Source: an uncultured Bacteroidales bacterium (GTDB taxonomy: Bacteria > Bacteroidota > Bacteroidia > Bacteroidales > UBA932). Taken from it: DNA of 64,000 bases. The DNA lies in assembly GCA_905235085.1 (NCBI GenBank), contig CAJOKD010000012.1, positions 8,308 through 72,307 on the forward strand, in the 5' to 3' direction. This document shows, piece after piece, positions 47,386 through 56,558 of the stretch. The translations under genes were made by a program, and so were the position numbers. Below the pieces are notes generated by a model that worked only from the letters and a program-made list of their open reading frames with translations, searched no databases and was not told where the DNA came from. Within the stretch, counting starts at the first letter, position 1. Every line of letters begins with the position of its first letter.

Positions 47386-49050
47386 ATGAACAAGATTTAC
47401 TGCAAGAACACGGGCACCTTCAAGGAATTCAAGGAAGGGACCTCTTTGTTGGATATAGCCGGAGCTTTCGAGTTCGACAAACCTTACCCCATACTCGCCG
47501 CCAAGGTCAACAACGTCACTGAGGGGCTGCGATTCAGGGTATATCACAACCTGGACGTTGAGTTCCTCGACTACCGCACCTATTCCGGGCGCAATTACTA
47601 TTGCAGGTCCCTCTGTTTCCTGCTTTACAGCGCCGTCCGCGACCTGTTCCCGAAGAGCTGCCTTAGGATCCGGAGACCTATCTCCAAAGGGTATTACTGC
47701 TCGGTCGACAAAGGCGACGGTACTCCCCTTACCGAGTCCGATGCCGAGGCCATACGCACCAGGATGCGCAAGACTGTAGAGGCTGATGTCCCTTTCAGGC
47801 GCCACGAGGCCCAGGTCGGTGATGCGATCGAGAAATTCCGACGCAGCGGCAACCTGGACAAGGTGAAACTGCTCGAGACCTGCGGAGAGGTCTATATCAC
47901 GTATTACACCCTGGGGGATACATCCGACTATTATTACGACGAACTCGTACCCAGTGCCGGCTACCTCAAGACTTGGAGCGTGGACCTGTACAAGGGAGGA
48001 CTTCTGATGAGGGTTCCTGACCGTCATCATCCGGAAGACCTGGCTCCGTTCTTCGAGCAACCCAAGACTTTCGAGGTATTCAAGGAGCTGGACAAATGGA
48101 ACTCGATAATGAACCTGCGCAACGTGGGGGATGTGAACGAGTCCATCCTCAAGGGAAGCGCCACGGACCTCATCCAGATAGCAGAAGCCCTGCAGGAGAA
48201 GAAAATCGTCCAGATTGCCGAGGACATCGACAGGCGTCACGACGATCCCGAGTCTCCGGTCAGGCTGGTCCTCATCACGGGTCCTACCAGCAGCGGCAAG
48301 AGCACGTTCTGCAAGAGGCTCAGCGTCCAGCTCAAAGCTTGCGGCTTGCATCCGATATCCTTCTCGACCGACGACTATTTCGTCAACCGGCTGGATACAC
48401 CGAGACTGCCTGACGGGTCCTTCGATTTCGACAATTTCGACACGGTGGACCACGATTACCTGCAGAAAGACCTCGTCAAGCTACTACGGGGAGAAGAGGT
48501 GGAAGTACCTGAATTCAACTTCGTTACGGGACTCAGGGAATTCAACGGGAAGAAGCTGAGATTGGGAGAGCGGTCAGTATTGCTCATCGAAGGCATACAC
48601 GCCTTGAATCCGAAACTTACCGAACTGGTTCCTGAAAGGGAGAAGTACCGGATATTCATAAACACCATCACCTCGATATCTCTGGACGACCACAACTGCA
48701 TCCCTACCAGCGACAACCGGCTGCTCAGGAGGATCATCAGGGATTTCCTGAAAGGTGCTTTCACCGCCCAGGAGACAATATCCAACTGGCCGAATATCCG
48801 TCGGGCGGAGGTGAGGTGGATATATCCGTTCCAGGAAGATGCAGACGTGCTGTTCAACTCATCCTACCTGATCGAGTTCGCCGTCCTGCGGACACACGCC
48901 GAAAGGATACTTGCAACCGTCCCTAAGAATTGCAAGGAATACAGCGAAGCTCACAGGCTGCTCAAGTTCCTGCACTACTTCGTCCCGGTATCAGACAAGG
49001 AAATACCTTCCACTTCCCTTCTCCGCGGTTTCATCGGATACGGGAACTAG
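47386..49050 (+). CDS. Nucleoside (uridine-type) kinase with N-terminal TGS-like domain
   Basis: It has a P-loop (LITGPTSSGKSTF) and a uridine-kinase-like C-terminal half (LLIEGIHALNP). At 554 aa it matches the Bacteroidales 'nucleoside kinase' type. Confidence 0.7.
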   Translation: MNKIYCKNTGTFKEFKEGTSLLDIAGAFEFDKPYPILAAKVNNVTEGLRFRVYHNLDVEFLDYRTYSGRNYYCRSLCFLLYSAVRDLFPKSCLRIRRPISKGYYCSVDKGDGTPLTESDAEAIRTRMRKTVEADVPFRRHEAQVGDAIEKFRRSGNLDKVKLLETCGEVYITYYTLGDTSDYYYDELVPSAGYLKTWSVDLYKGGLLMRVPDRHHPEDLAPFFEQPKTFEVFKELDKWNSIMNLRNVGDVNESILKGSATDLIQIAEALQEKKIVQIAEDIDRRHDDPESPVRLVLITGPTSSGKSTFCKRLSVQLKACGLHPISFSTDDYFVNRLDTPRLPDGSFDFDNFDTVDHDYLQKDLVKLLRGEEVEVPEFNFVTGLREFNGKKLRLGERSVLLIEGIHALNPKLTELVPEREKYRIFINTITSISLDDHNCIPTSDNRLLRRIIRDFLKGAFTAQETISNWPNIRRAEVRWIYPFQEDADVLFNSSYLIEFAVLRTHAERILATVPKNCKEYSEAHRLLKFLHYFVPVSDKEIPSTSLLRGFIGYGN

Positions 49051-51547: not shown

Positions 51548-51555
51548 TATATTTG
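51548..51555 (+). promoter_or_regulatory. Bacteroidota -7 box (TATATTTG) upstream of the DUF4491 gene
   Basis: Matches TAnnTTTG, 21 nt before ATG 51576. This argues against the GTG start at 51555 in the ORF track. Confidence 0.45.
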
Positions 51556-51575
51556 TGTACTTAACAAATCCCAGA

Positions 51576-51893
51576 ATGAATTTTGAAGGAATCATCGTGG
51601 GTGCCGCAGTCTTCCTGATAATCGGGCTGTGCCATCCGGTGACGATAAAACTTGAATATCACTTCGGAAAGAAAGGCGCCTGGTTTTTCGCCGTCGCAGG
51701 TCTGGTCTGCGCTGCCGCCTCACTGTTCATAATGCACCATACGGTTTCCACTATCCTTGCCGCTTTTTCTTTTTCTTGTTTCTGGGGCATCCGAGAGGTA
51801 TTCCAGCAGGAGAAACGCGTTCTGAGAGGCTGGTTTCCGGAGAATCCCACCCGTCACGAATATTACGAAAACCTGAGAAAGAAATATCTGTAA
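51576..51893 (+). CDS. Small membrane protein, DUF4491-like
   Basis: MNFEGIIVGAAVFLIIGLCHPVTIKLEYHFG...FWGIREVFQQEKRVLRGWFPENP resembles the DUF4491 family as I recall it. Confidence 0.65.
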   Translation: MNFEGIIVGAAVFLIIGLCHPVTIKLEYHFGKKGAWFFAVAGLVCAAASLFIMHHTVSTILAAFSFSCFWGIREVFQQEKRVLRGWFPENPTRHEYYENLRKKYL

Positions 51894-51904
51894 CATAATA
51901 TCCA

Positions 51905-53866
51905 ATGATTATCGTCTTGAAACTACTGGGCTCGATAGCCCTTCTCATATACGGAATGAAGGTTATGAGCGAAGCTCTCCAGAAAATGGCGGGCCCTCAG
52001 CTGCGACACCTTCTGGGAGCAATGACTACGAACCGTCTGTCCGGTGTGGCTACCGGTGCTCTCGTAACTGTAGCCGTGCAGTCTTCCGCTGCGACCACCG
52101 TAATGACCGTGTCGTTCGTGAACGCTGCCTTGCTCACGCTCGCACAGGCCATATCCGTCATTATGGGAGCCAATATCGGTACCACAATCAGCGCGTGGAT
52201 CATGTCGGCCGGTTTCTCGTTCAACATAGCCACCCTGGTCTGGCCTGCTTTCCTTGTGGGAATCATACTCATTCAGATCGGAAAACACCGCTATGTGGGT
52301 GATCTCCTGTTCGGTCTGGCCTTCCTGCTCTTCGCCCTGGCGATGCTCAAGGACGCCGGTAACGAAATGGATCTGGCCAGCAAACCGGCTGTAGTCGCCT
52401 TCTTCGCAAGTTTCAAGACCAATTACGGAACTATACTGCTCTTCCTCCTCATCGGCTCCGTCCTCACCGCGATGGTACAGAGTTCGGCCGCACTTATGGC
52501 CATCACTATGGTACTCTGCACGACCGGAGCGATAACGATATTCCAGGGTATCGCTCTGGTTATGGGAGAGAACATCGGTACCACGCTGACAGCCAACCTC
52601 GCGGCGATGGGGGCAAATACCCAGGCCCGTAGGGCAGCTCTTGCCCACTTGGTATTCAACGTATTCGGTGTACTCTGGGTGCTCATACTGTTCTTCCCGT
52701 TCGTGAAGATGGTTTGCGGAATAGTAGGAATTGATCCTACCGATCCTTCACAGGATCCGACAAGGCTGTCCTTCGCCCTGGCTACCTTCCATACCGCTTT
52801 CAACGTAATCAACACCGCGATCCTCATAGGCTTCATCCCGCAGATCGAGAAATTCGTCTGCAAGCTCATCCCTACGAAAAAGACCGATTTGGAAGACGAA
52901 TTCCGTCTCCAGTACATCCGTGCCGGTATTATGAAGACTCCGGAAATCTCCGTCCTTCAGGCCCAGAAGGAAATAGTGGTCTTCGGAGAGAAGATGGAGA
53001 AGATGTTCTCCCTACTGAAGGAGCTTTATTCCACCACGGATGAGAAGTCTTTCCTGAAGCTTTTCGAGAGGATTGAGAAATACGAGGATATGAGCGACAA
53101 GATGGAAGGCGAGATCGCCCGCTATCTCAGCGAGGTTGGATATTCCCATCTGTCCGATGACACCAAATCGAAGATCCGGTCGATGCTCCGCCAGATTGGA
53201 GAATTGGAGAGTATCGGCGACAGTTTCTTCTGCATTGCCCGAATCCTCAGGCGCGGACGTGAGAACAAGGTGGAATACACAGAAGAGCAGACAGAGGGTG
53301 GACGCGAGATGTACAAACTCGTGGAAGATGCCTTGCACCAGATGAATTTCGCACTGGCCAACCGCAAGGAAGATGTCCAGCTTTCCGCTTCCGTAGAAAT
53401 CGAAAAGCGGATTAATGAATGCCGCAACCTCTGGAGAGCACGCAACGTCGAGAATGTTGACAACCATATTTACGGATATAGCAGCGGAAGTGTATTCACA
53501 GACCTGATCAACGAGTGTGAAAAGACGGGAGACTTTATCATGAACGTAGTCGAGGCACGCCTCGGTGTCGTCCGAAACGGTATCCGTATAAAAGGCATCC
53601 AGATAGACACTGACAGCAAGTTGGTTTCTGTGGACAATACGACGGTTTCTTTCACAAGGACGGACTACGAGCTCCTCAAGCTCCTGGCTTCGAACCCGGG
53701 CAAGGTGTTCACCAGGGAAGAAATCCTAAAGGAAGCCTGGCCTGACGACGAGATTGTCTCAGGAAAGACCGTCGATGCCACCATCGCCCGTATCCGCCGC
53801 AAGATCGGGCAGTATGCGTCCTGCATCGCCGGAGACAGCGTTTCAGGCTATTCATTCCAGGAATAA
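51905..53866 (+). CDS. Na/Pi-cotransporter family protein with PhoU-like region and a C-terminal OmpR/PhoB-type winged-helix DNA-binding domain
   Basis: Two Na_Pi_cotrans repeats are present (MGANIGTT, MGENIGTT). A PhoU-like helical region follows (IGELESIGDSF, ECEKTGDFIMNVVEA). The last 95 aa read IRIKGIQIDTDSKLVSVDNTTVSFTRTDYELLKLLASNPGKVFTREEILKEAWPDDEIVSGKTVDATIARIRRKIG...SGYSF. Confidence 0.85.
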   Translation: MIIVLKLLGSIALLIYGMKVMSEALQKMAGPQLRHLLGAMTTNRLSGVATGALVTVAVQSSAATTVMTVSFVNAALLTLAQAISVIMGANIGTTISAWIMSAGFSFNIATLVWPAFLVGIILIQIGKHRYVGDLLFGLAFLLFALAMLKDAGNEMDLASKPAVVAFFASFKTNYGTILLFLLIGSVLTAMVQSSAALMAITMVLCTTGAITIFQGIALVMGENIGTTLTANLAAMGANTQARRAALAHLVFNVFGVLWVLILFFPFVKMVCGIVGIDPTDPSQDPTRLSFALATFHTAFNVINTAILIGFIPQIEKFVCKLIPTKKTDLEDEFRLQYIRAGIMKTPEISVLQAQKEIVVFGEKMEKMFSLLKELYSTTDEKSFLKLFERIEKYEDMSDKMEGEIARYLSEVGYSHLSDDTKSKIRSMLRQIGELESIGDSFFCIARILRRGRENKVEYTEEQTEGGREMYKLVEDALHQMNFALANRKEDVQLSASVEIEKRINECRNLWRARNVENVDNHIYGYSSGSVFTDLINECEKTGDFIMNVVEARLGVVRNGIRIKGIQIDTDSKLVSVDNTTVSFTRTDYELLKLLASNPGKVFTREEILKEAWPDDEIVSGKTVDATIARIRRKIGQYASCIAGDSVSGYSFQE

Positions 53867-53881
53867 ACAACTCTTCTGAAT

Positions 53882-55075
53882 ATGACAAGATTAGCTTTAT
53901 TTGTCGCAGTTCTTCTCTCAGGAACTGCCTGCTTCGCTCAACAAGCCCTGTGGGGTGGAGCCCAGATAGAATCCCCGGTCATCAACGACAACGGAACGGT
54001 AACTTTCAGGTGCGTTGCTCCCAAGGCCGTGAAAGTCCAGGTTACAGGAGACTTCCTTCCTACCAGGAAGGTCCAGACCGAATGGGGAGAATTCGATGCC
54101 CCCGGCGTGGGTGAATTCACCGAAGGAAAGAACGGACTCTGGGAATATACTACCCCTGAAGCGGTCGCCCCGGAGCTCTATCTCTACAACCTGATCATAG
54201 ACGGGAACCAGACCCTCGACTTCAACAATATGTGGATTAACCGGGATGTGAGCACCATCAACAATATGTTCCTGGTCCCAGGCGGGAGATCCGACTACTA
54301 TGCTGTCAGGAACGTCCCGCACGGAACAGTCTCAAAGGTCTGGTATCCTTGCACCTTGACCAAGAACAACAGGAGGATGACGGTCTACACTCCGGCAGGC
54401 TACAATCCTACCGGCAAGACCCGTTATCCGGTGGTTTATATCCTTCACGGTGCCGGAGGTGACGAAGATGCCTGGGTTACCGAAGGCCGCGCCTCACAGA
54501 TACTAGACAATATGATCGCCGAAGGCAGGTGCAAGCCTATGATAGCCGTATTTACCAACGGAAACATATCCCAGGAAGCCGCTCCTCTCGAGAATTCCAC
54601 CGGCTATGTAAGGCCAGTGTTCCGCCAGGAGAAGCAGATGGAAGGCTCGTTCGAAGAGACTTTCCCTGAGATTGTCAAGTACATAGACAGCCATTACAAG
54701 ACTTTGGCCAACAAGAAGAACCGCGCAATCTGCGGTCTTTCGATGGGTGGATTCCATACAATGTACATCTCGCTGAACTATCCGGACTTGTTCAACTATT
54801 CGGGTATGTTCTCCGCCGCGGTGGGGGTAAGCGATCCCAAGATTTCTCCTCTCTACCAGGATGTGGACGCGAAGCTCGCCACATATTTCAGCAAGAAACC
54901 GGCCCTGCTGTGGATCGGGATCGGCAAGACCGACTTCCTCTACAATCAGAACGAGGAGCTTCGGGCAAAGCTGGATGCTGCAGGATATCCTTACACCTAC
55001 CTTGAGACTGACGGCGGGCATATCTGGAAAAACTGGAGGATATACCTGACTGAATTCCTTCCGAAGCTGTTCTAA
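53882..55075 (+). CDS. Secreted esterase (CE1/'putative esterase' family) with N-terminal Ig-like/CBM48-like domain
   Basis: It has a signal peptide, an E-set-like segment (VTFRCVAPKAVKVQVTGDF), the nucleophile elbow GLSMGG and a C-terminal GGH. Confidence 0.75.
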   Translation: MTRLALFVAVLLSGTACFAQQALWGGAQIESPVINDNGTVTFRCVAPKAVKVQVTGDFLPTRKVQTEWGEFDAPGVGEFTEGKNGLWEYTTPEAVAPELYLYNLIIDGNQTLDFNNMWINRDVSTINNMFLVPGGRSDYYAVRNVPHGTVSKVWYPCTLTKNNRRMTVYTPAGYNPTGKTRYPVVYILHGAGGDEDAWVTEGRASQILDNMIAEGRCKPMIAVFTNGNISQEAAPLENSTGYVRPVFRQEKQMEGSFEETFPEIVKYIDSHYKTLANKKNRAICGLSMGGFHTMYISLNYPDLFNYSGMFSAAVGVSDPKISPLYQDVDAKLATYFSKKPALLWIGIGKTDFLYNQNEELRAKLDAAGYPYTYLETDGGHIWKNWRIYLTEFLPKLF

Positions 55076-55090
55076 ACAATATTTCAAGAT

Positions 55091-55531
55091 ATGCGCCTTT
55101 TCAAATATATCCTTGCTGCGCTGATCGCTGCAGCTACGTTGGCAGCCTGTTCCGATGAAGGCAAGAACGTTCCCTTTACCGAAGCGAGGAACTATTTCGT
55201 CAGGAACGACGTCGTCCTGCCGCTCGTATCTCCGGTCATCGAATCCCAGGCTCAGCTCGACAGCCTTTTCGGGATGGCCGCGGTAATGGGCAGGAACGGG
55301 AGGCCAACTGACATAGATTTCAGCAGGGAGTTCTGCGTCGCCTACGTGGTCCCTCCGACCGATACCCTGACCGAAATCGTGCCGGTGGCAGTGACATCCA
55401 AGGGACAGGAGCTGACCTGCACTTTCGAAATCAGGAAGGGAGACCCGATCACCTGGACCATCCAACCTTTCAGCCTCATAGTCATAGACAGAAGCTACCA
55501 CAAGAAGCAAGTCAAAGTAAAGGTCGACTGA
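55091..55531 (+). CDS. Hypothetical lipoprotein (146 aa)
   Basis: Lipobox TLAACS. Its composition looks coding and it is tightly packed between the two esterase genes. I recognise no family. Confidence 0.55.
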   Translation: MRLFKYILAALIAAATLAACSDEGKNVPFTEARNYFVRNDVVLPLVSPVIESQAQLDSLFGMAAVMGRNGRPTDIDFSREFCVAYVVPPTDTLTEIVPVAVTSKGQELTCTFEIRKGDPITWTIQPFSLIVIDRSYHKKQVKVKVD

Positions 55532-55538
55532 TTCCGTT

Positions 55539-56558
55539 ATGAAAAGAGCAGCGAGCCTTATTCTGGCAGGATTGATATGCCTGGCCGCCACCGGACAGAC
55601 CAAGCCCTCCCCTTCCGAAGTGACTGTTGCCAAGGACGGGAGCGGAGACTTCACAACCATTCAGGAAGCCGTCAATGCCCTTAGGTCTTTCAGGCCGGAG
55701 GGCAGGGCCGTGATTCGTGTAAGGAACGGTGTATATGAGGAAAAAGTGGTGATTCCGGCGCACAAGACCGATATCTCTCTCATCGGGGAAAGCCGTGATT
55801 CGACCATCCTCATATGGCACGACCACGCCAATATGCCCGATGGGAAAGGAAGCACCATAGGGACATTCGAATCCTATACGCTGAAGGTGGAAGGACCTGG
55901 GTTCATCTGCGAGGATATGACTATCGTCAACGATGCGATGACCTACAACAATCCCCGGTGGCAGATAACCCGCAAGGATGTTTACAACTTAGGACAAGCA
56001 GTGGCGGTACATATAGATGCAGACCGGGTAGTATTCCGGAACTGCGCTCTCAAGGGCTTCCAGGACACATTGTTCACCGGGAACCCGGAAGGAAGGGAAC
56101 TGTTCGACAACTGCTGGATCGAAGGTACGGTCGATTTCATATTCGGCCCCGCCACGGTCTGGTTCAGGCAATGCCACCTCCACGCCCTTTCTGACGGGTA
56201 TTACACCGCCGCATCCACTCCGGAAGGCAGGTTCGGGTACATTTTCGACGCCTGCACATTCACTGCGGCCGAGGGCATCAGCAAACTGTGGCTCGGACGT
56301 CCCTGGCGTCCCTTTGCACAGGTAGTGCTCAAGGATTGCCTGATAGATGCACCGGTAGACCCGCTGGGATGGAACGACTGGGGAGATCCGGCCACCCACA
56401 AGACCGCCAGGTTCTGGGAATACTCCTGCTCCGGCAAGGGAGCCGGCCGCTCCGGCAGAGCTGCGTGGTCAAAGAGGATTTCCAACGGACGCGCCCGCAA
56501 GATTACGCAGGAGAAAGTGTTCACCCGCCCTGCGGATAAATGGGAAACTTACCGTTGA
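55539..56558 (+). CDS. Pectinesterase (carbohydrate esterase family 8)
   Basis: The CE8 signatures are present: GQAVAVHIDADRVVFRNCALKGFQDTLF, DFIFG and LGRPW. Confidence 0.9.
   Translation: MKRAASLILAGLICLAATGQTKPSPSEVTVAKDGSGDFTTIQEAVNALRSFRPEGRAVIRVRNGVYEEKVVIPAHKTDISLIGESRDSTILIWHDHANMPDGKGSTIGTFESYTLKVEGPGFICEDMTIVNDAMTYNNPRWQITRKDVYNLGQAVAVHIDADRVVFRNCALKGFQDTLFTGNPEGRELFDNCWIEGTVDFIFGPATVWFRQCHLHALSDGYYTAASTPEGRFGYIFDACTFTAAEGISKLWLGRPWRPFAQVVLKDCLIDAPVDPLGWNDWGDPATHKTARFWEYSCSGKGAGRSGRAAWSKRISNGRARKITQEKVFTRPADKWETYR

Follow-up and report, generated by a model that had tools for sequence, protein, structure and literature searches.

A PhoB-type DNA-binding domain without a receiver, fused to an NptA-PhoU phosphate transporter in rumen and gut Bacteroidales

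Results

A transporter, a PhoU domain and a winged helix in one polypeptide

A 64 kb stretch of rumen Bacteroidales DNA, here called the window, contains a gene that encodes an NptA core, a PhoU domain and a PhoB-type winged helix in a single chain. We favour, with moderate confidence, a reading in which this protein serves as a Pho regulator that sits in the membrane, needs no phosphorelay and is gated by its transporter/PhoU module; both the DNA binding and the gating are inferred. The ORF list shows an uninterrupted frame of 653 aa starting with an ATG, and the DNA spanning the junction (53525-53614) is in frame throughout, with no stop. The features of the gene are collected in Table 1.

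Table 1. Features of the fusion gene and its upstream neighbour in the window
Feature	Position (nt)	Strand	Basis
DUF4491 small membrane protein gene	51555..51893	+	PF14898, E 1.7e-35
Whole fusion gene (653 aa plus stop)	51905..53866	+	ORF list; Pfam and NCBIfam domain matches; full-length homologs
Polytopic Na/Pi cotransporter core (SLC34/NptA family), aa 1-325	51905..52879	+	TIGR00704; PF02690 x2
First QSS motif, VQSSAATT, aa 58-65 (predicted Pi-binding hairpin tip)	52076..52099	+	aligns to SLC34A2 QSSS
First GxNIGTT motif, GANIGTT, aa 88-94	52166..52186	+	read from sequence
Second QSS motif, VQSSAALM, aa 191-198	52475..52498	+	SLC34A2 alignment; read from sequence
Second GxNIGTT motif, GENIGTT, aa 221-227	52565..52585	+	read from sequence
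Flexible linker that joins the transporter to the PhoU bundle, aa 326-345	52880..52939	+	pLDDT <50, full-length AlphaFold2 model
PhoU-like six-helix bundle, aa 346-553	52940..53563	+	PF01895; AlphaFold2; Foldseek
Two E-x-E-x-x-G-D motifs in the PhoU bundle	53201-53221, 53513-53533	+	invariant in alignment A1
Junction VVRN between last PhoU helix and DNA-binding domain, aa 555-558	53567..53578	+	alignments with unfused NptA ends and PhoB alpha5-linker
PhoB-type effector domain (winged helix-turn-helix), aa 559-653	53579..53863	+	PF00486; NF053854; AlphaFold2; Foldseek
Recognition helix KTVDATIARIRRKI, aa 621-634	53765..53806	+	alignments; helix census in both clades
Wing hairpin GDSVSGYSF, aa 643-651	53831..53857	+	alignments

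Pfam searches of the window protein matched Na_Pi_cotrans (PF02690) in two stretches (E 1.5e-53, 181 bits vs. a cut-off of 29.1), with the first repeat covering aa 13-149, PhoU (PF01895) at aa 361-446 (E 3.2e-07, 31.1 vs. 23.5 bits) and Trans_reg_C (PF00486) at aa 579-650 (E 1.3e-16, 60.8 vs. 26.2 bits). Among the NCBIfam models, TIGR00704 matched aa 1-325 (211.9 bits vs. a cut-off of 210.1) and NF037997 scored 185.8 bits (cut-off 50). The original prediction, made without database searches, had proposed a Na/Pi core with duplicated GxNIGTT motifs, a PhoU-like helical region and a C-terminal OmpR/PhoB winged helix lacking a receiver, and had expected PF02690 twice, PF01895 and PF00486. All four matches were found and all three claims held: the core is supported by PF02690 x2, TIGR00704 and the motifs at aa 88-94 and 221-227, the PhoU region by PF01895, AlphaFold2 and Foldseek, and the winged helix by PF00486 in the absence of any Response_reg match.

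The transporter core is homologous to the zebrafish SLC34A2 structures 9z60-9z66 (E 5e-16), in which the QSSS motif has a role in Pi binding (bioRxiv 10.64898/2026.05.25.727688). The corresponding QSS triplets proper occupy aa 59-61 and aa 192-194 of the window protein, and both QSS and both GxNIGTT motifs are invariant in 30 homologs (alignment A1). Because these motifs are invariant and dN/dS in the core is only 0.03-0.08, we judge the transporter part of the fusion to be intact and predict that it works; Na-coupled Pi transport itself is inferred. The PhoU region is modelled by AlphaFold2 as six long helices (pLDDT 80-98) and matches PhoU structure 2i0m in Foldseek with a target TM-score of 0.83 over 212 columns. 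Its two motifs, ELESIGD and ECEKTGD, are also invariant in alignment A1. The region thus qualifies as a PhoU accessory regulator (PF01895), for which a bundle of two three-helix repeats with motifs of the E/D-x-x-x-D type is expected.

The best NCBIfam match of the C-terminus is the Bacteroidetes PhoB model NF053854 (E 4e-26). Since the match is confined to positions 131-225 of 225, only the effector half of PhoB is present, and the score of 91.7 bits falls short of the PhoB equivalog cut-off of 270. No Response_reg domain was found in the window protein by Pfam; the PhoU bundle precedes the winged helix instead, and the N-terminal receiver with its phospho-acceptor Asp, expected of OmpR/PhoB response regulators, is lacking. 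The window protein thus carries the effector domain of a response regulator and is not itself a response regulator. The winged helix topology is present in the AlphaFold2 model of this domain, whose top Foldseek matches are the PhoB effector structures 1gxq and 1gxp (target TM-score 0.83-0.84). The four residues of the junction, VVRN, are probably what is left of the last part of receiver helix alpha5.

Hydrophobic segments are seen in the window protein as far as about aa 308 and not beyond about aa 320. As no transmembrane segment follows aa 320 and the winged helix comes directly after the PhoU domain, this domain is likely to be cytoplasmic, an inference from the sequence alone. The geometry between the PhoU bundle and the winged helix could not be taken from AlphaFold2: with a pTM of 0.44 for the full-length model their orientation is unresolved, and the value of 0.69 for the soluble half may come from the PhoU bundle alone.

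Distribution of the fusion

The fusion architecture recurs in at least 240 clusters of proteins (90% identity) drawn from numerous independent assemblies (ENA, NCBI, JGI and Logan). They comprise 120 clusters matched best by the window protein (clade A) and 120 for a second clade (clade B), and are 73-100% identical to the query of the clade concerned. The 120 best clusters for the window protein are 72-100% identical to it and 625-693 aa long, and all but one contain all three domains, or at least PF02690 and PF00486. In the sole exception, P0011, PF00486 is missing and the match spans 77% of the query. The identical window protein was found on 4 contigs, and eight species-representative genomes carry the fusion. 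The original prediction had worried about a missed stop or frameshift and had left the spread of the architecture undecided. The worry was not borne out by the open reading frame and the recurrence of the same architecture.

In the wider NptA family, none of the 150 best representatives at 50% identity has the fusion. Its distribution is narrow in taxonomic terms, limited to rumen and gut Bacteroidales, and it is abundant and diversified within those lineages. We found no description of the architecture in the searchable literature. NptA relatives with N-terminal extensions were considered as possible PhoB-NptA fusions and rejected, as none has a DNA-binding domain; the extensions resemble PCuAC, FN3 or the purple acid phosphatase N-terminal domain, or have no Pfam match.

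The DNA-binding domain is under purifying selection, with dN/dS values of 0.18-0.24 in clade A and 0.07-0.12 in clade B (synonymous sites are near saturation). With the same caveat, the dN/dS values contradict recent pseudogene-like chimeras.

Origin from an nptA-phoB-phoR operon

At four loci of the nearest unfused relatives (L009, L024, L030 and L033), the nptA-PhoU gene ends in VVEARYNIK or VVQARFGK followed by its stop codon. A full PhoB, with receiver and winged helix, is encoded 18-142 bp further on and scores 309-317 bits against NF053854, above the cut-off of 270. The third gene of these sister operons encodes a short kinase with two transmembrane helices and no PAS domain, consisting of HisKA and HATPase_c only, whose best match is Bacteroidetes PhoR. 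The fused DNA-binding domains are 32-58% identical to the effector domains of the adjacent PhoBs, vs. 25-38% to E. coli PhoB, and no receiver or kinase was found at the fusion loci. This comparison shows that the ancestor was an nptA-PhoU/phoB/short-phoR operon and that the fusion corresponds to this operon minus the receiver and the kinase. Together with the PhoB receiver, the deletion would have taken the stop codon of nptA, the kinase also being lost. The original prediction held that NptA proteins normally stop at about VVEARLG, and unfused relatives indeed end in NVVEARLG. Its proposal that the phosphorelay is bypassed now has direct comparative support from the adjacent nptA-PhoU, phoB and kinase genes of the unfused relatives, from the likeness of the domains and from the loss of receiver and kinase; control of the DNA-binding domain by conformation remains an inference.

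A neighbour-joining tree of aa 1-555 (300 bootstrap replicates) groups clade A with L009 and L013 (94% support) and clade B with L024, L039 and L033 (69%), and clades A and B were grouped together in 0 of 300 bootstraps. The breakpoints also differ, clade A keeping the 'RN' of the alpha5 end and clade B the terminal 'GK' of NptA, while a 1-aa deletion in the W-loop is confined to clade B. Because the junctions differ and the clades never group, the fusion is likely to have arisen twice, in two Bacteroidales clades. Microhomology between the nptA end (VVEAR.G) and receiver alpha5 (VVARVGAV) can be imagined as the mechanism of deletion; this is speculation, the likeness being suggestive in protein, especially in clade A, and weak in DNA.

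Two close relatives of the fusions, L003 and L004, lack the DNA-binding domain, and no remnant of it was detected downstream at E values up to 100. The domain is therefore dispensable in some lineages. Its absence may reflect secondary loss or a paralogous copy, which we cannot distinguish.

A Pho-box-like repeat and its absence from the window

In 27 loci, nptA is preceded at a distance of 53-159 bp by a Pho-box-like repeat, TGTAAC-N5-YGTAAY. In a PWM scan of loci L001-L086 (about 1 Mb), 32 of 34 matches of at least 16 bits were located at this distance upstream of an nptA start, and one of the remaining two was found in L073, where it precedes a phoB-phoR pair by about 63 bp. Operon-type loci also have a direct repeat with 11-bp periodicity upstream. 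Among the fusion genes, the box is present at 9/11 of those with a canonical recognition helix vs. 0/7 of those with a diverged helix, the window gene included (Fisher p = 0.002, phylogeny not corrected for). The canonical members keep the helix V-D-V-N/H-I-T-R-L-R-K-K in a helix census of the two clades. As their box lies upstream of their own start codon, by 82-92 bp (36 bp in L091), these members are probably autoregulated; this is inferred, without DNA-binding data. In orientation and distance, the clade B box agrees with that of the nptA-phoB-phoR operons. The clade A box is inverted compared to both clade B and the operon-type loci, with TTTAAY as its second half-site, and its activation geometry may differ.

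The recognition helix of the window protein (KTVDATIARIRRKI) has diverged from the canonical Bacteroidetes PhoB form (RTVDVNITRLRKKL) at three positions (V to A, N to T and T to A), and its wing, GDSVSGYSF, lacks the Arg of canonical relatives (R-x-G-F-G-Y). A canonical Pho box in the window was sought and rejected, pattern and PWM scans performing no better than shuffles: allowing up to 2 mismatches, the exact pattern gave 4 matches in the 64 kb vs. 6 expected, and the best PWM score, 11 bits, was below 17 of 20 shuffle maxima. With no box, three changes in the helix and the wing Arg missing, the assignment of a PhoB-like target fails for the window protein, whose subclade is a less typical branch of the fusion family. 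It likely binds a different, unidentified sequence elsewhere in the genome, an inference for which there are no binding data. The upstream regions of the diverged-helix group are short, with a plain TAnnTTTG promoter element; a replacement motif in the form of exact 6-mer direct repeats at 10-12 bp spacing was not found there.

Neighbourhood of the fusion gene

The DUF4491 gene ends 11 nt before the fusion ATG and the two genes are probably co-transcribed. The same gene order is found in L001, L082 and L083 and is absent at other fusion loci; we therefore rejected DUF4491 as a conserved partner, its linkage being restricted to the window's subclade. A tblastn search detected neither the DNA-binding nor the PhoU part a second time in the whole 64 kb, and no phoB, phoR or pst genes were present among the ten flanking ORFs scanned around the window gene. 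The fusion gene is surrounded by pectin- and glycan-degradation genes.

Discussion

A proposed mechanism

In response regulators of the OmpR/PhoB family, the receiver restrains the effector domain until it is phosphorylated. In the reading we favour, this restraining role would pass to the transporter/PhoU module, with the PhoU bundle connected by 2-4 residues to the part of PhoB that binds DNA and activates transcription. The bundle would take up a conformation or oligomeric state that depends on phosphate occupancy or on the transport cycle, and this state would decide whether the tethered winged helices sit head-to-tail on the 11-bp-spaced repeat and contact RNA polymerase from the membrane, like ToxR and CadC. 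Precedents are the effect of the NptA PhoU domain on PhoPR output in S. aureus (PMC13170248) and the binding of PhoB to the pst promoter in B. fragilis (PMC3547664). How two winged helices would pair is unexplained, because SLC34A2 was solved as a monomer (bioRxiv 10.64898/2026.05.25.727688).

A bolder reading is that a complete phosphate transporter became the sensor of a transcription factor, independently in two lineages, that flux or occupancy is what is read, that Pho-box promoters are acted on from the membrane and that part of one lineage, including the window, was re-targeted. Taken jointly, these inferences could as well prove wrong as right.

Comparison with known systems

Over its first 555 residues the fusion is an ordinary NptA-type transporter (S. 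aureus NptA; TIGR00704/PF02690+PF01895; eukaryotic SLC34): it has two inverted repeats, the QSS and NIGTT motifs and a PhoU bundle of six helices. In S. aureus, NptA feeds PhoPR signalling through its PhoU domain (PMC13170248), and we propose the same logic for the fusion; known family members, however, end after the PhoU bundle and need a separate kinase and response regulator. The C-terminal 95 aa share the effector fold of PhoB (NF053854; B. fragilis BF1576; E. coli 1GXP/1GXQ) and derive from the phoB that adjoins nptA in sister lineages. Unlike PhoB, the fusion has no receiver, phospho-acceptor Asp or cognate kinase at the locus, and its DNA-binding domain is tethered to a polytopic membrane protein, with both helix and wing diverged in the window copy.

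ToxR, CadC, TcpP and PsaE also place a receiver-less winged helix of the OmpR family at the cytoplasmic face of the membrane, as predicted for the fusion, and a winged helix of this type can act on DNA while held at the membrane (PMC5430869, PMC7496328). These regulators have an N-terminal winged helix, a single transmembrane helix and a periplasmic sensor domain, a layout that the fusion does not have, and some need a separate co-sensing transporter, e.g. LysP for CadC. In the fusion, by contrast, the winged helix lies at the C-terminus, and a complete transporter with its PhoU bundle, in the same chain, would act as the sensor. By analogy, it may work like the ToxR/CadC regulators without being one of them. 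ChiS of Vibrio cholerae, a membrane-embedded sensor kinase whose C-terminal domain binds DNA directly (bioRxiv 10.1101/2020.01.10.902320), short-circuits the usual two-protein relay, as proposed here, but it is not a transporter, keeps its kinase and receiver and uses another type of DNA-binding domain. That transporter activity or conformation can be a real transcriptional stimulus is illustrated by PstSCAB-PhoU-PhoR and by the 'trigger transporter' systems BceAB-BceS, LysP-CadC and DcuB-DcuS, and the PAS-less kinase of the sister operons, with its two transmembrane helices, resembles intramembrane-sensing kinases that rely on a transporter. Unlike the fusion, these systems keep transporter and regulator separate and signal via a kinase or an independent regulator.

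Alternative explanations

An assembly chimera, or a sequencing error erasing a stop or frameshift between a transporter and a small regulator, served as our null hypothesis and is all but excluded. Nothing was found to support it, and it is contradicted by the identical protein on 4 contigs, by the same contiguous architecture in at least 240 distinct clusters, by the eight species-representative genomes and by purifying selection across the junction and domain. It is also unlikely that the fusion acts negatively, as a membrane-anchored competitor or repressor that occupies or titrates Pho boxes in opposition to a separate soluble PhoB instead of taking over its role as activator. The inverted clade A box, whose geometry is perhaps unfit for PhoB-style activation, would favour this idea. 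Receiver-less effectors lack the dimerisation drive of phosphorylated receivers, and a bona fide PhoBR, which exists in Bacteroides species (PMC3547664), could be present alongside the fusion. Against it, the clade B box is placed as in nptA-phoB-phoR operons, where activation is expected, nearly all aligned fusions (28/30 clade A rows) retain the transactivation-loop Trp, and the loss of kinase and receiver at the locus fits replacement better, with the proviso that a separate phoBR elsewhere in these genomes is not excluded.

The winged helix could alternatively have been co-opted away from DNA to become a protein-protein or autoregulatory appendage, for example one that gates transport, especially in the window's subclade. 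The changed recognition helix, lost wing Arg and missing box of that subclade point this way, as do the weaker constraint on the domain in clade A than in clade B, its complete loss from L003 and L004 and, in S. aureus, an apparent further role of the NptA PhoU domain in regulating importer activity (PMC13170248). We nevertheless consider co-option improbable: the recognition helix keeps its basic residues (R-I-R-R-K) and the fold is retained as a whole, the helix is conserved inside the window's subclade, and the PhoB-like helix and cognate box of canonical members would be left unexplained without DNA binding. Least credible of the functional alternatives is a pro-protein from which regulated proteolysis near the junction would free a soluble, constitutively active effector under phosphate scarcity. 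Regulated proteolysis is known in other membrane-bound regulators (reviewed in PMC7593790), and receiver-less E. coli PhoB is reported to be active (Ellison and McCleary 2000). The junction, however, offers a protease no more than 2-4 residues, flanked by a long helix and the first beta-strand, and is a poor substrate; there is no conserved cleavage motif or internal start (Met546 is not conserved), and ToxR, CadC and ChiS function without release. The phosphorelay-free, membrane-embedded regulator remains our preferred reading.

Implications

What PhoU-type modules read from a transporter, and how it is relayed, is unresolved. If our reading is true, the fusion removes kinase, phosphatase and receiver from the phosphate-sensing problem; in their absence, any phosphate-dependent change in transcription must come from the conformation of the transporter/PhoU module. 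Coupling between transporter and output would then become testable in a single polypeptide, which would also offer a compact, single-gene scaffold for a phosphate biosensor. The repeat TGTAAC-N5-YGTAAY is a putative candidate for a Bacteroidales Pho box, without binding data. The sister operons and the apparent two fusions provide evolutionary evidence for NptA-PhoU inputs to PhoB in Bacteroidales, extending the genetic result on NptA-PhoU signalling in S. aureus (PMC13170248) to another phylum, and hundreds of rumen and gut proteins named only 'Na/Pi symporter' are flagged as probable regulators.

Domain composition, fold and topology of the fusion protein

The fusion gene is a single unbroken ORF encoding 653 aa. 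The original prediction had read it as a Na/Pi transporter core, a PhoU-like region and a C-terminal winged helix with no receiver domain, and all of this held. In Pfam scans, Na_Pi_cotrans (PF02690) was found in two stretches (E 1.5e-53), PhoU (PF01895) at aa 361-446 (E 3.2e-07) and Trans_reg_C (PF00486) at aa 579-650 (E 1.3e-16), while no receiver domain was detected by either Pfam or NCBIfam. With NCBIfam, aa 1-325 matched TIGR00704 marginally above its cut-off, and the top model for the C-terminus was the Bacteroidetes PhoB equivalog NF053854, at positions 131-225 of 225 only, i.e. the effector half of PhoB. The transporter core, which retains both QSS motifs and both NIGTT motifs, has a homologue of recently determined structure in SLC34A2 (9z60-9z66; E 5e-16), whose QSSS motifs bind phosphate and which was solved as a monomer.

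AlphaFold2 predicts a six-helix PhoU bundle at aa 346-553 followed, four residues later, by a domain with the strand and helix order of OmpR-type winged helices. A Foldseek search of the PDB with this model ranked the PhoB effector domain first (1gxq, 1gxp; target TM-score 0.83-0.84) and also matched PhoU (2i0m; 0.83 over 212 columns). No hydrophobic segment was found beyond about aa 320 of the protein, so that both the winged helix and the PhoU bundle face the cytoplasm. A single cytoplasm-facing chain thus carries what looks like a complete Na/Pi transporter, together with a PhoU bundle and the effector domain of PhoB. The source annotation of the fusion proteins is only 'Na/Pi symporter' or 'phosphate:Na+ symporter'.

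The fusion is abundant in a narrow part of the Bacteroidales

The best 120 clusters (90% identity) for the window protein were 72-100% identical to it and 625-693 aa long, and all but one carried PF00486 together with PF02690. A second search, seeded with a Prevotella-type fusion (L006), returned another 120 clusters of at least 73% identity, all with PF00486. With one genome scanned per species, 80 nptA loci were obtained, almost all of them from Bacteroidales; the fusion was contiguous in eight of these genomes (L001, L002, L005, L006, L007, L010, L019 and a window-like Candidatus Cryptobacteroides) and the remaining nptA genes ended at aa 550-575. MAGs with the fusion include JBGVAE01, JAFXMB01, CACWNQ01 and CAMHAM01, and DGWI01 and JAILBT01 are among the unfused sisters. 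Of 20,486 relatives that a full HMMER scan found among 1.84 billion representatives at 50% identity, no member of the top 150 extended past about aa 565 of the query, and the extra length of the longer members consisted of unrelated N-terminal domains. Many fusion clusters, and none among the best 150 wider relatives, indicate an architecture that is abundant and diversified in a narrow part of the Bacteroidales and missing elsewhere in the family; its spread was a question that the original prediction had left unanswered.

That prediction had also worried about a missed stop or frameshift at the junction. The DNA there reads through in frame and the same architecture recurs in many other clusters. 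An artefactual origin of the ORF is ruled out by its occurrence on four contigs encoding a protein identical to the window's, in many clusters and in the eight species-representative genomes.

Other variations on nptA were also seen. Five NptA-PhoU relatives (P0152, P0209, P0147, P0157, P0268) have N-terminal extensions of 130-230 aa: one is a PCuAC copper-chaperone domain, three have no Pfam match and another weakly matches FN3-like and purple-acid-phosphatase-N families. Some Prevotellaceae genomes (L012, L017, L043) have two nptA-PhoU paralogs side by side, in tandem or inverted. Close relatives of Bacteroidales-type nptA occur in records assigned to other phyla (L014, titled Oribacterium sp.; L054 and L061, both Fibrobacter; L064, Chlorobiota), possibly through bin contamination or horizontal transfer; the L014 C-terminus is nearly identical to that of a Bacteroidaceae locus (L016).

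Origin from an nptA-phoB-phoR operon

The DNA-binding domain also turned up by tblastn in four loci without a fusion (L009, L024, L030, L033), where it lies a few hundred bases downstream of nptA. Here nptA-PhoU ends in '...NVVEARYNIK*' or '...NVVQARFGK*' (ORF reading); 18-142 bp further on comes an entire response regulator (receiver plus winged helix), with a histidine kinase after it. All four regulators exceed the curated cut-off of NF053854 (309-317 vs. 270 bits). The top match of the kinase is Bacteroidetes PhoR, over the C-terminal 230 residues only; it has two TM helices, HisKA and HATPase_c, without a PAS or HAMP domain. By analogy, it resembles an intramembrane-sensing kinase, and NptA-PhoU may be the sensor on which it depends. 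To the effector domains of these adjacent PhoBs the fused domains show 32-58% identity, vs. 25-38% to that of E. coli PhoB, and neither a receiver nor a kinase was found at the fusion loci. The simplest reading, and a likely one given that the unfused sisters have an adjacent phoB, that the fused domain most resembles it and that receiver and kinase are gone, is that the fusion is this operon with the nptA stop codon and the receiver deleted, and the kinase lost.

One fusion event or two

In a neighbour-joining tree of aa 1-555 (300 bootstraps), the fusions fall into two clades. Clade A comprises the window, L001, L002 and, nested among them, the unfused L003 and L004 (100% support); it joins operon-type L009, and also L013, with 94% support. 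Clade B (L005, L006, L007, L010, L019; 100%) joins L024, L039 and L033 with 69% support; L024 and L033 are operon-type, and no regulator or kinase match was found downstream of nptA in L039. The two clades were monophyletic together in 0/300 bootstraps. Their junctions differ: that of clade A reads ARLG-VVRN-GIR.KG, the retained 'RN' matching the end of receiver helix alpha5 (...AVLKRN), while that of clade B reads ARLG-K[RH]-FL.F.G, retaining NptA's own terminal 'GK' and entering the linker at a later point. A one-residue deletion in the Trp loop is peculiar to clade B, being seen neither in clade A nor in any PhoB, and the clade B domain is nearest to the L024 PhoB (56-58%). On these grounds we lean towards two independent fusions. 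The methods were simple, the domain used for neighbour joining being short, and a single event followed by recombination is not excluded. The unfused L003 and L004 genes end directly past the PhoU bundle with no trace of a DNA-binding domain downstream, pointing to either secondary loss of the domain or a paralogous copy.

An upstream box tracks the recognition helix

Operon-type genes and those of clade B have in common an upstream direct repeat with 11-bp periodicity, TGTAAC-N5-YGTAAY. The exact pattern was present in 15/80 loci, just upstream of nptA in all 15. A matrix made from 12 sites, used to scan about 1 Mb of loci L001-L086 at a threshold of 16 bits, gave 34 matches, of which 32 precede an nptA start codon by 53-159 bp. 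The box precedes nptA in 27 of these 86 Bacteroidales loci, including nptA genes without a linked regulator. One of the two other matches precedes a phoB-phoR pair (L073) by about 63 bp, a position that, judged from sequence alone, would be expected of an autoregulated Pho box. In E. coli and B. subtilis, known Pho boxes have a similar form. We found no description of the repeat in the literature searched; it may be a Bacteroidales Pho box, a candidacy for which there are no binding data.

Comparing recognition helix and box in 18 fusion genes showed a box in 9/11 genes with the canonical helix, TV[DN]VNI.R[IL]RKK, vs. 0/7 with a diverged one (Fisher's p 0.002, uncorrected for shared ancestry). 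In canonical-helix genes the box lies 81-92 bp upstream (36 bp in L091); no matrix match of at least 8 bits was found within 400 bp upstream of the seven diverged-helix genes.

Recognition helix and upstream box in fusion genes
Helix	Genes	Box
Canonical, clade B	L005, L006, L007, L010	Present, in the gene's orientation
Canonical, clade A	L002, L084, L085, L086, L091	Present, inverted, second half-site TTTAAY
Canonical	L089	Degenerate copy
Canonical	L019	None
Diverged	Window (KTVDATIA); L001, L082 (HTVDASIA); L081 (RTLDASIS)	None
Diverged	L087 (HTVETNVS); L088 (RVVDSYIN); L090 (RTVDATVS)	None

This correlation suggests, again without binding data, that the fused domain itself reads the box, since binding by a separate PhoB gives no reason for the box to track the fused helix. 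In clade B all listed clusters are PhoB-like (V[DN]V[HN]IT); in clade A the exact VDVNIT occurs in only 66/117 of the listed clusters, most others differing at base-contacting positions. Just upstream of the inverted box of L002, a T-run comes after a GC-rich hairpin; together they are probably the preceding gene's terminator, and as such would mark the L002 fusion gene as its own transcription unit.

The DNA-binding domain is under selection in both clades

Pairwise Nei-Gojobori dN/dS, with synonymous sites near saturation, was 0.03-0.08 for the transporter, 0.06-0.21 for the PhoU bundle and 0.18-0.24 (clade A) or 0.07-0.12 (clade B) for the DNA-binding domain, which selection thus maintains in both clades, with weaker constraint in clade A. 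For this domain the clade A pair L001-L082 gave 0.295, an unreliable ratio since dS is only 0.015.

The window protein and its neighbourhood

The window protein belongs to a diverged subclade, with three recognition-helix differences from canonical PhoB and a wing without Arg. No Pho-box-like site better than chance was found in the 64 kb of the window. Its domain is under purifying selection (dN/dS 0.18 vs. L001) and the helix is conserved inside the subclade; for these reasons we tentatively prefer re-targeting over decay, which, without binding data, is the weakest part of our account.

Upstream of the gene, a DUF4491 membrane-protein gene is 11 nt away; downstream, an esterase gene follows after 15 nt. 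The surroundings are pectin and glycan-degradation genes, and the gene order is common to relatives at 84% identity. As the downstream gaps are 7-15 nt and there is no terminator-like site before the esterase gene, co-transcription with the pectin-degradation genes is possible. The DUF4491 pairing is seen only in the window's subclade (L001, L082, L083), and DUF4491 could be a partner of the fusion protein or merely a neighbour. Relatives of the window's PRK/uridine-kinase-domain protein (42-54% identity) adjoin nptA in many Bacteroidales, usually divergently (L008, L011, L014, L016-L018, L020-L022, L025, L029, L034, L038, L044, L045, L048, L052, L053, L055-L058, L063, L068); in the window, ABC-F, MBL-fold and DUF4491 genes lie between it and the fusion gene.

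Coordinates of the features discussed
Sequence	Position	Strand	Feature
Window	47386-49050	+	PRK/uridine-kinase-domain protein, 554 aa
Window	51555-51893	+	DUF4491 small membrane protein
Window	51905-53866	+	Fusion gene
Window	53882-56558	+	Esterase (PF00756), 146-aa protein without Pfam match, pectinesterase
L002	1600-1700		Hairpin and T-run, GACGCAAAG...CTTTGCGTC TTTTT
L003	4859-6547		Unfused nptA, nested in clade A, 74-78% identity to window's
L004	6001-7671		Unfused nptA, nested in clade A, 74-78% identity to window's
L009	2762-6171		nptA-PhoU / phoB / short-kinase operon
L024	5980-9345		nptA-PhoU / phoB / short-kinase operon
L030	3912-7400		nptA-PhoU / phoB / short-kinase operon
L033	5977-7668		nptA of operon
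L033	7719-8402		phoB of operon
L033	to about 9320		Kinase of operon
L009	2677-2693		Box
L010	2570-2586		Box
L024	5867-5913		Box
L030	3825-3841		Box
L033	5879-5895		Box
L039	5824-5870		Box
About 20 other loci			Box

A transporter as the proposed sensor of a transcription factor

The first 555 residues of the window protein are those of an ordinary NptA-PhoU transporter and the last 95 are the effector domain of PhoB. The protein nevertheless fails the defining test of response regulators, having no receiver, and the architectural test of the ToxR/CadC family, its winged helix being C-terminal and its membrane part polytopic. By analogy it may work like ToxR, CadC and trigger-transporter systems; the membrane-anchored OmpR-type domains of ToxR and CadC act on DNA while still membrane-bound. 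In S. aureus, the PhoU domain of NptA modulates the output of PhoPR and probably also the activity of the importer (PMC13170248), and in B. fragilis, PhoB binds to the pst promoter and is required for growth in low phosphate (PMC3547664). We found no description of the NptA-PhoU-PhoB effector architecture in the literature searched.

At the fusion loci the receiver and kinase have been lost, and retention of a Pho-box-like element goes with a canonical helix. We infer that in the sister operons NptA-PhoU would be the real sensor for a kinase without a sensing domain of its own, and that in the fusions the PhoU bundle would take the receiver's place, allowing or blocking the productive binding of two winged helices in a head-to-tail arrangement. 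Only 2-4 residues link the last PhoU helix to the first strand, which would favour tight mechanical coupling over release by proteolysis. The fusion is likely to be a membrane-embedded one-component regulator with a whole transporter as its sensor; this mechanism is unproven, both DNA binding and gating being inferred. The evolutionary series is unusually clear, from a full PhoR, through a PAS-less kinase adjoining nptA, to neither kinase nor receiver, and the fusion makes what PhoU modules sense directly testable.
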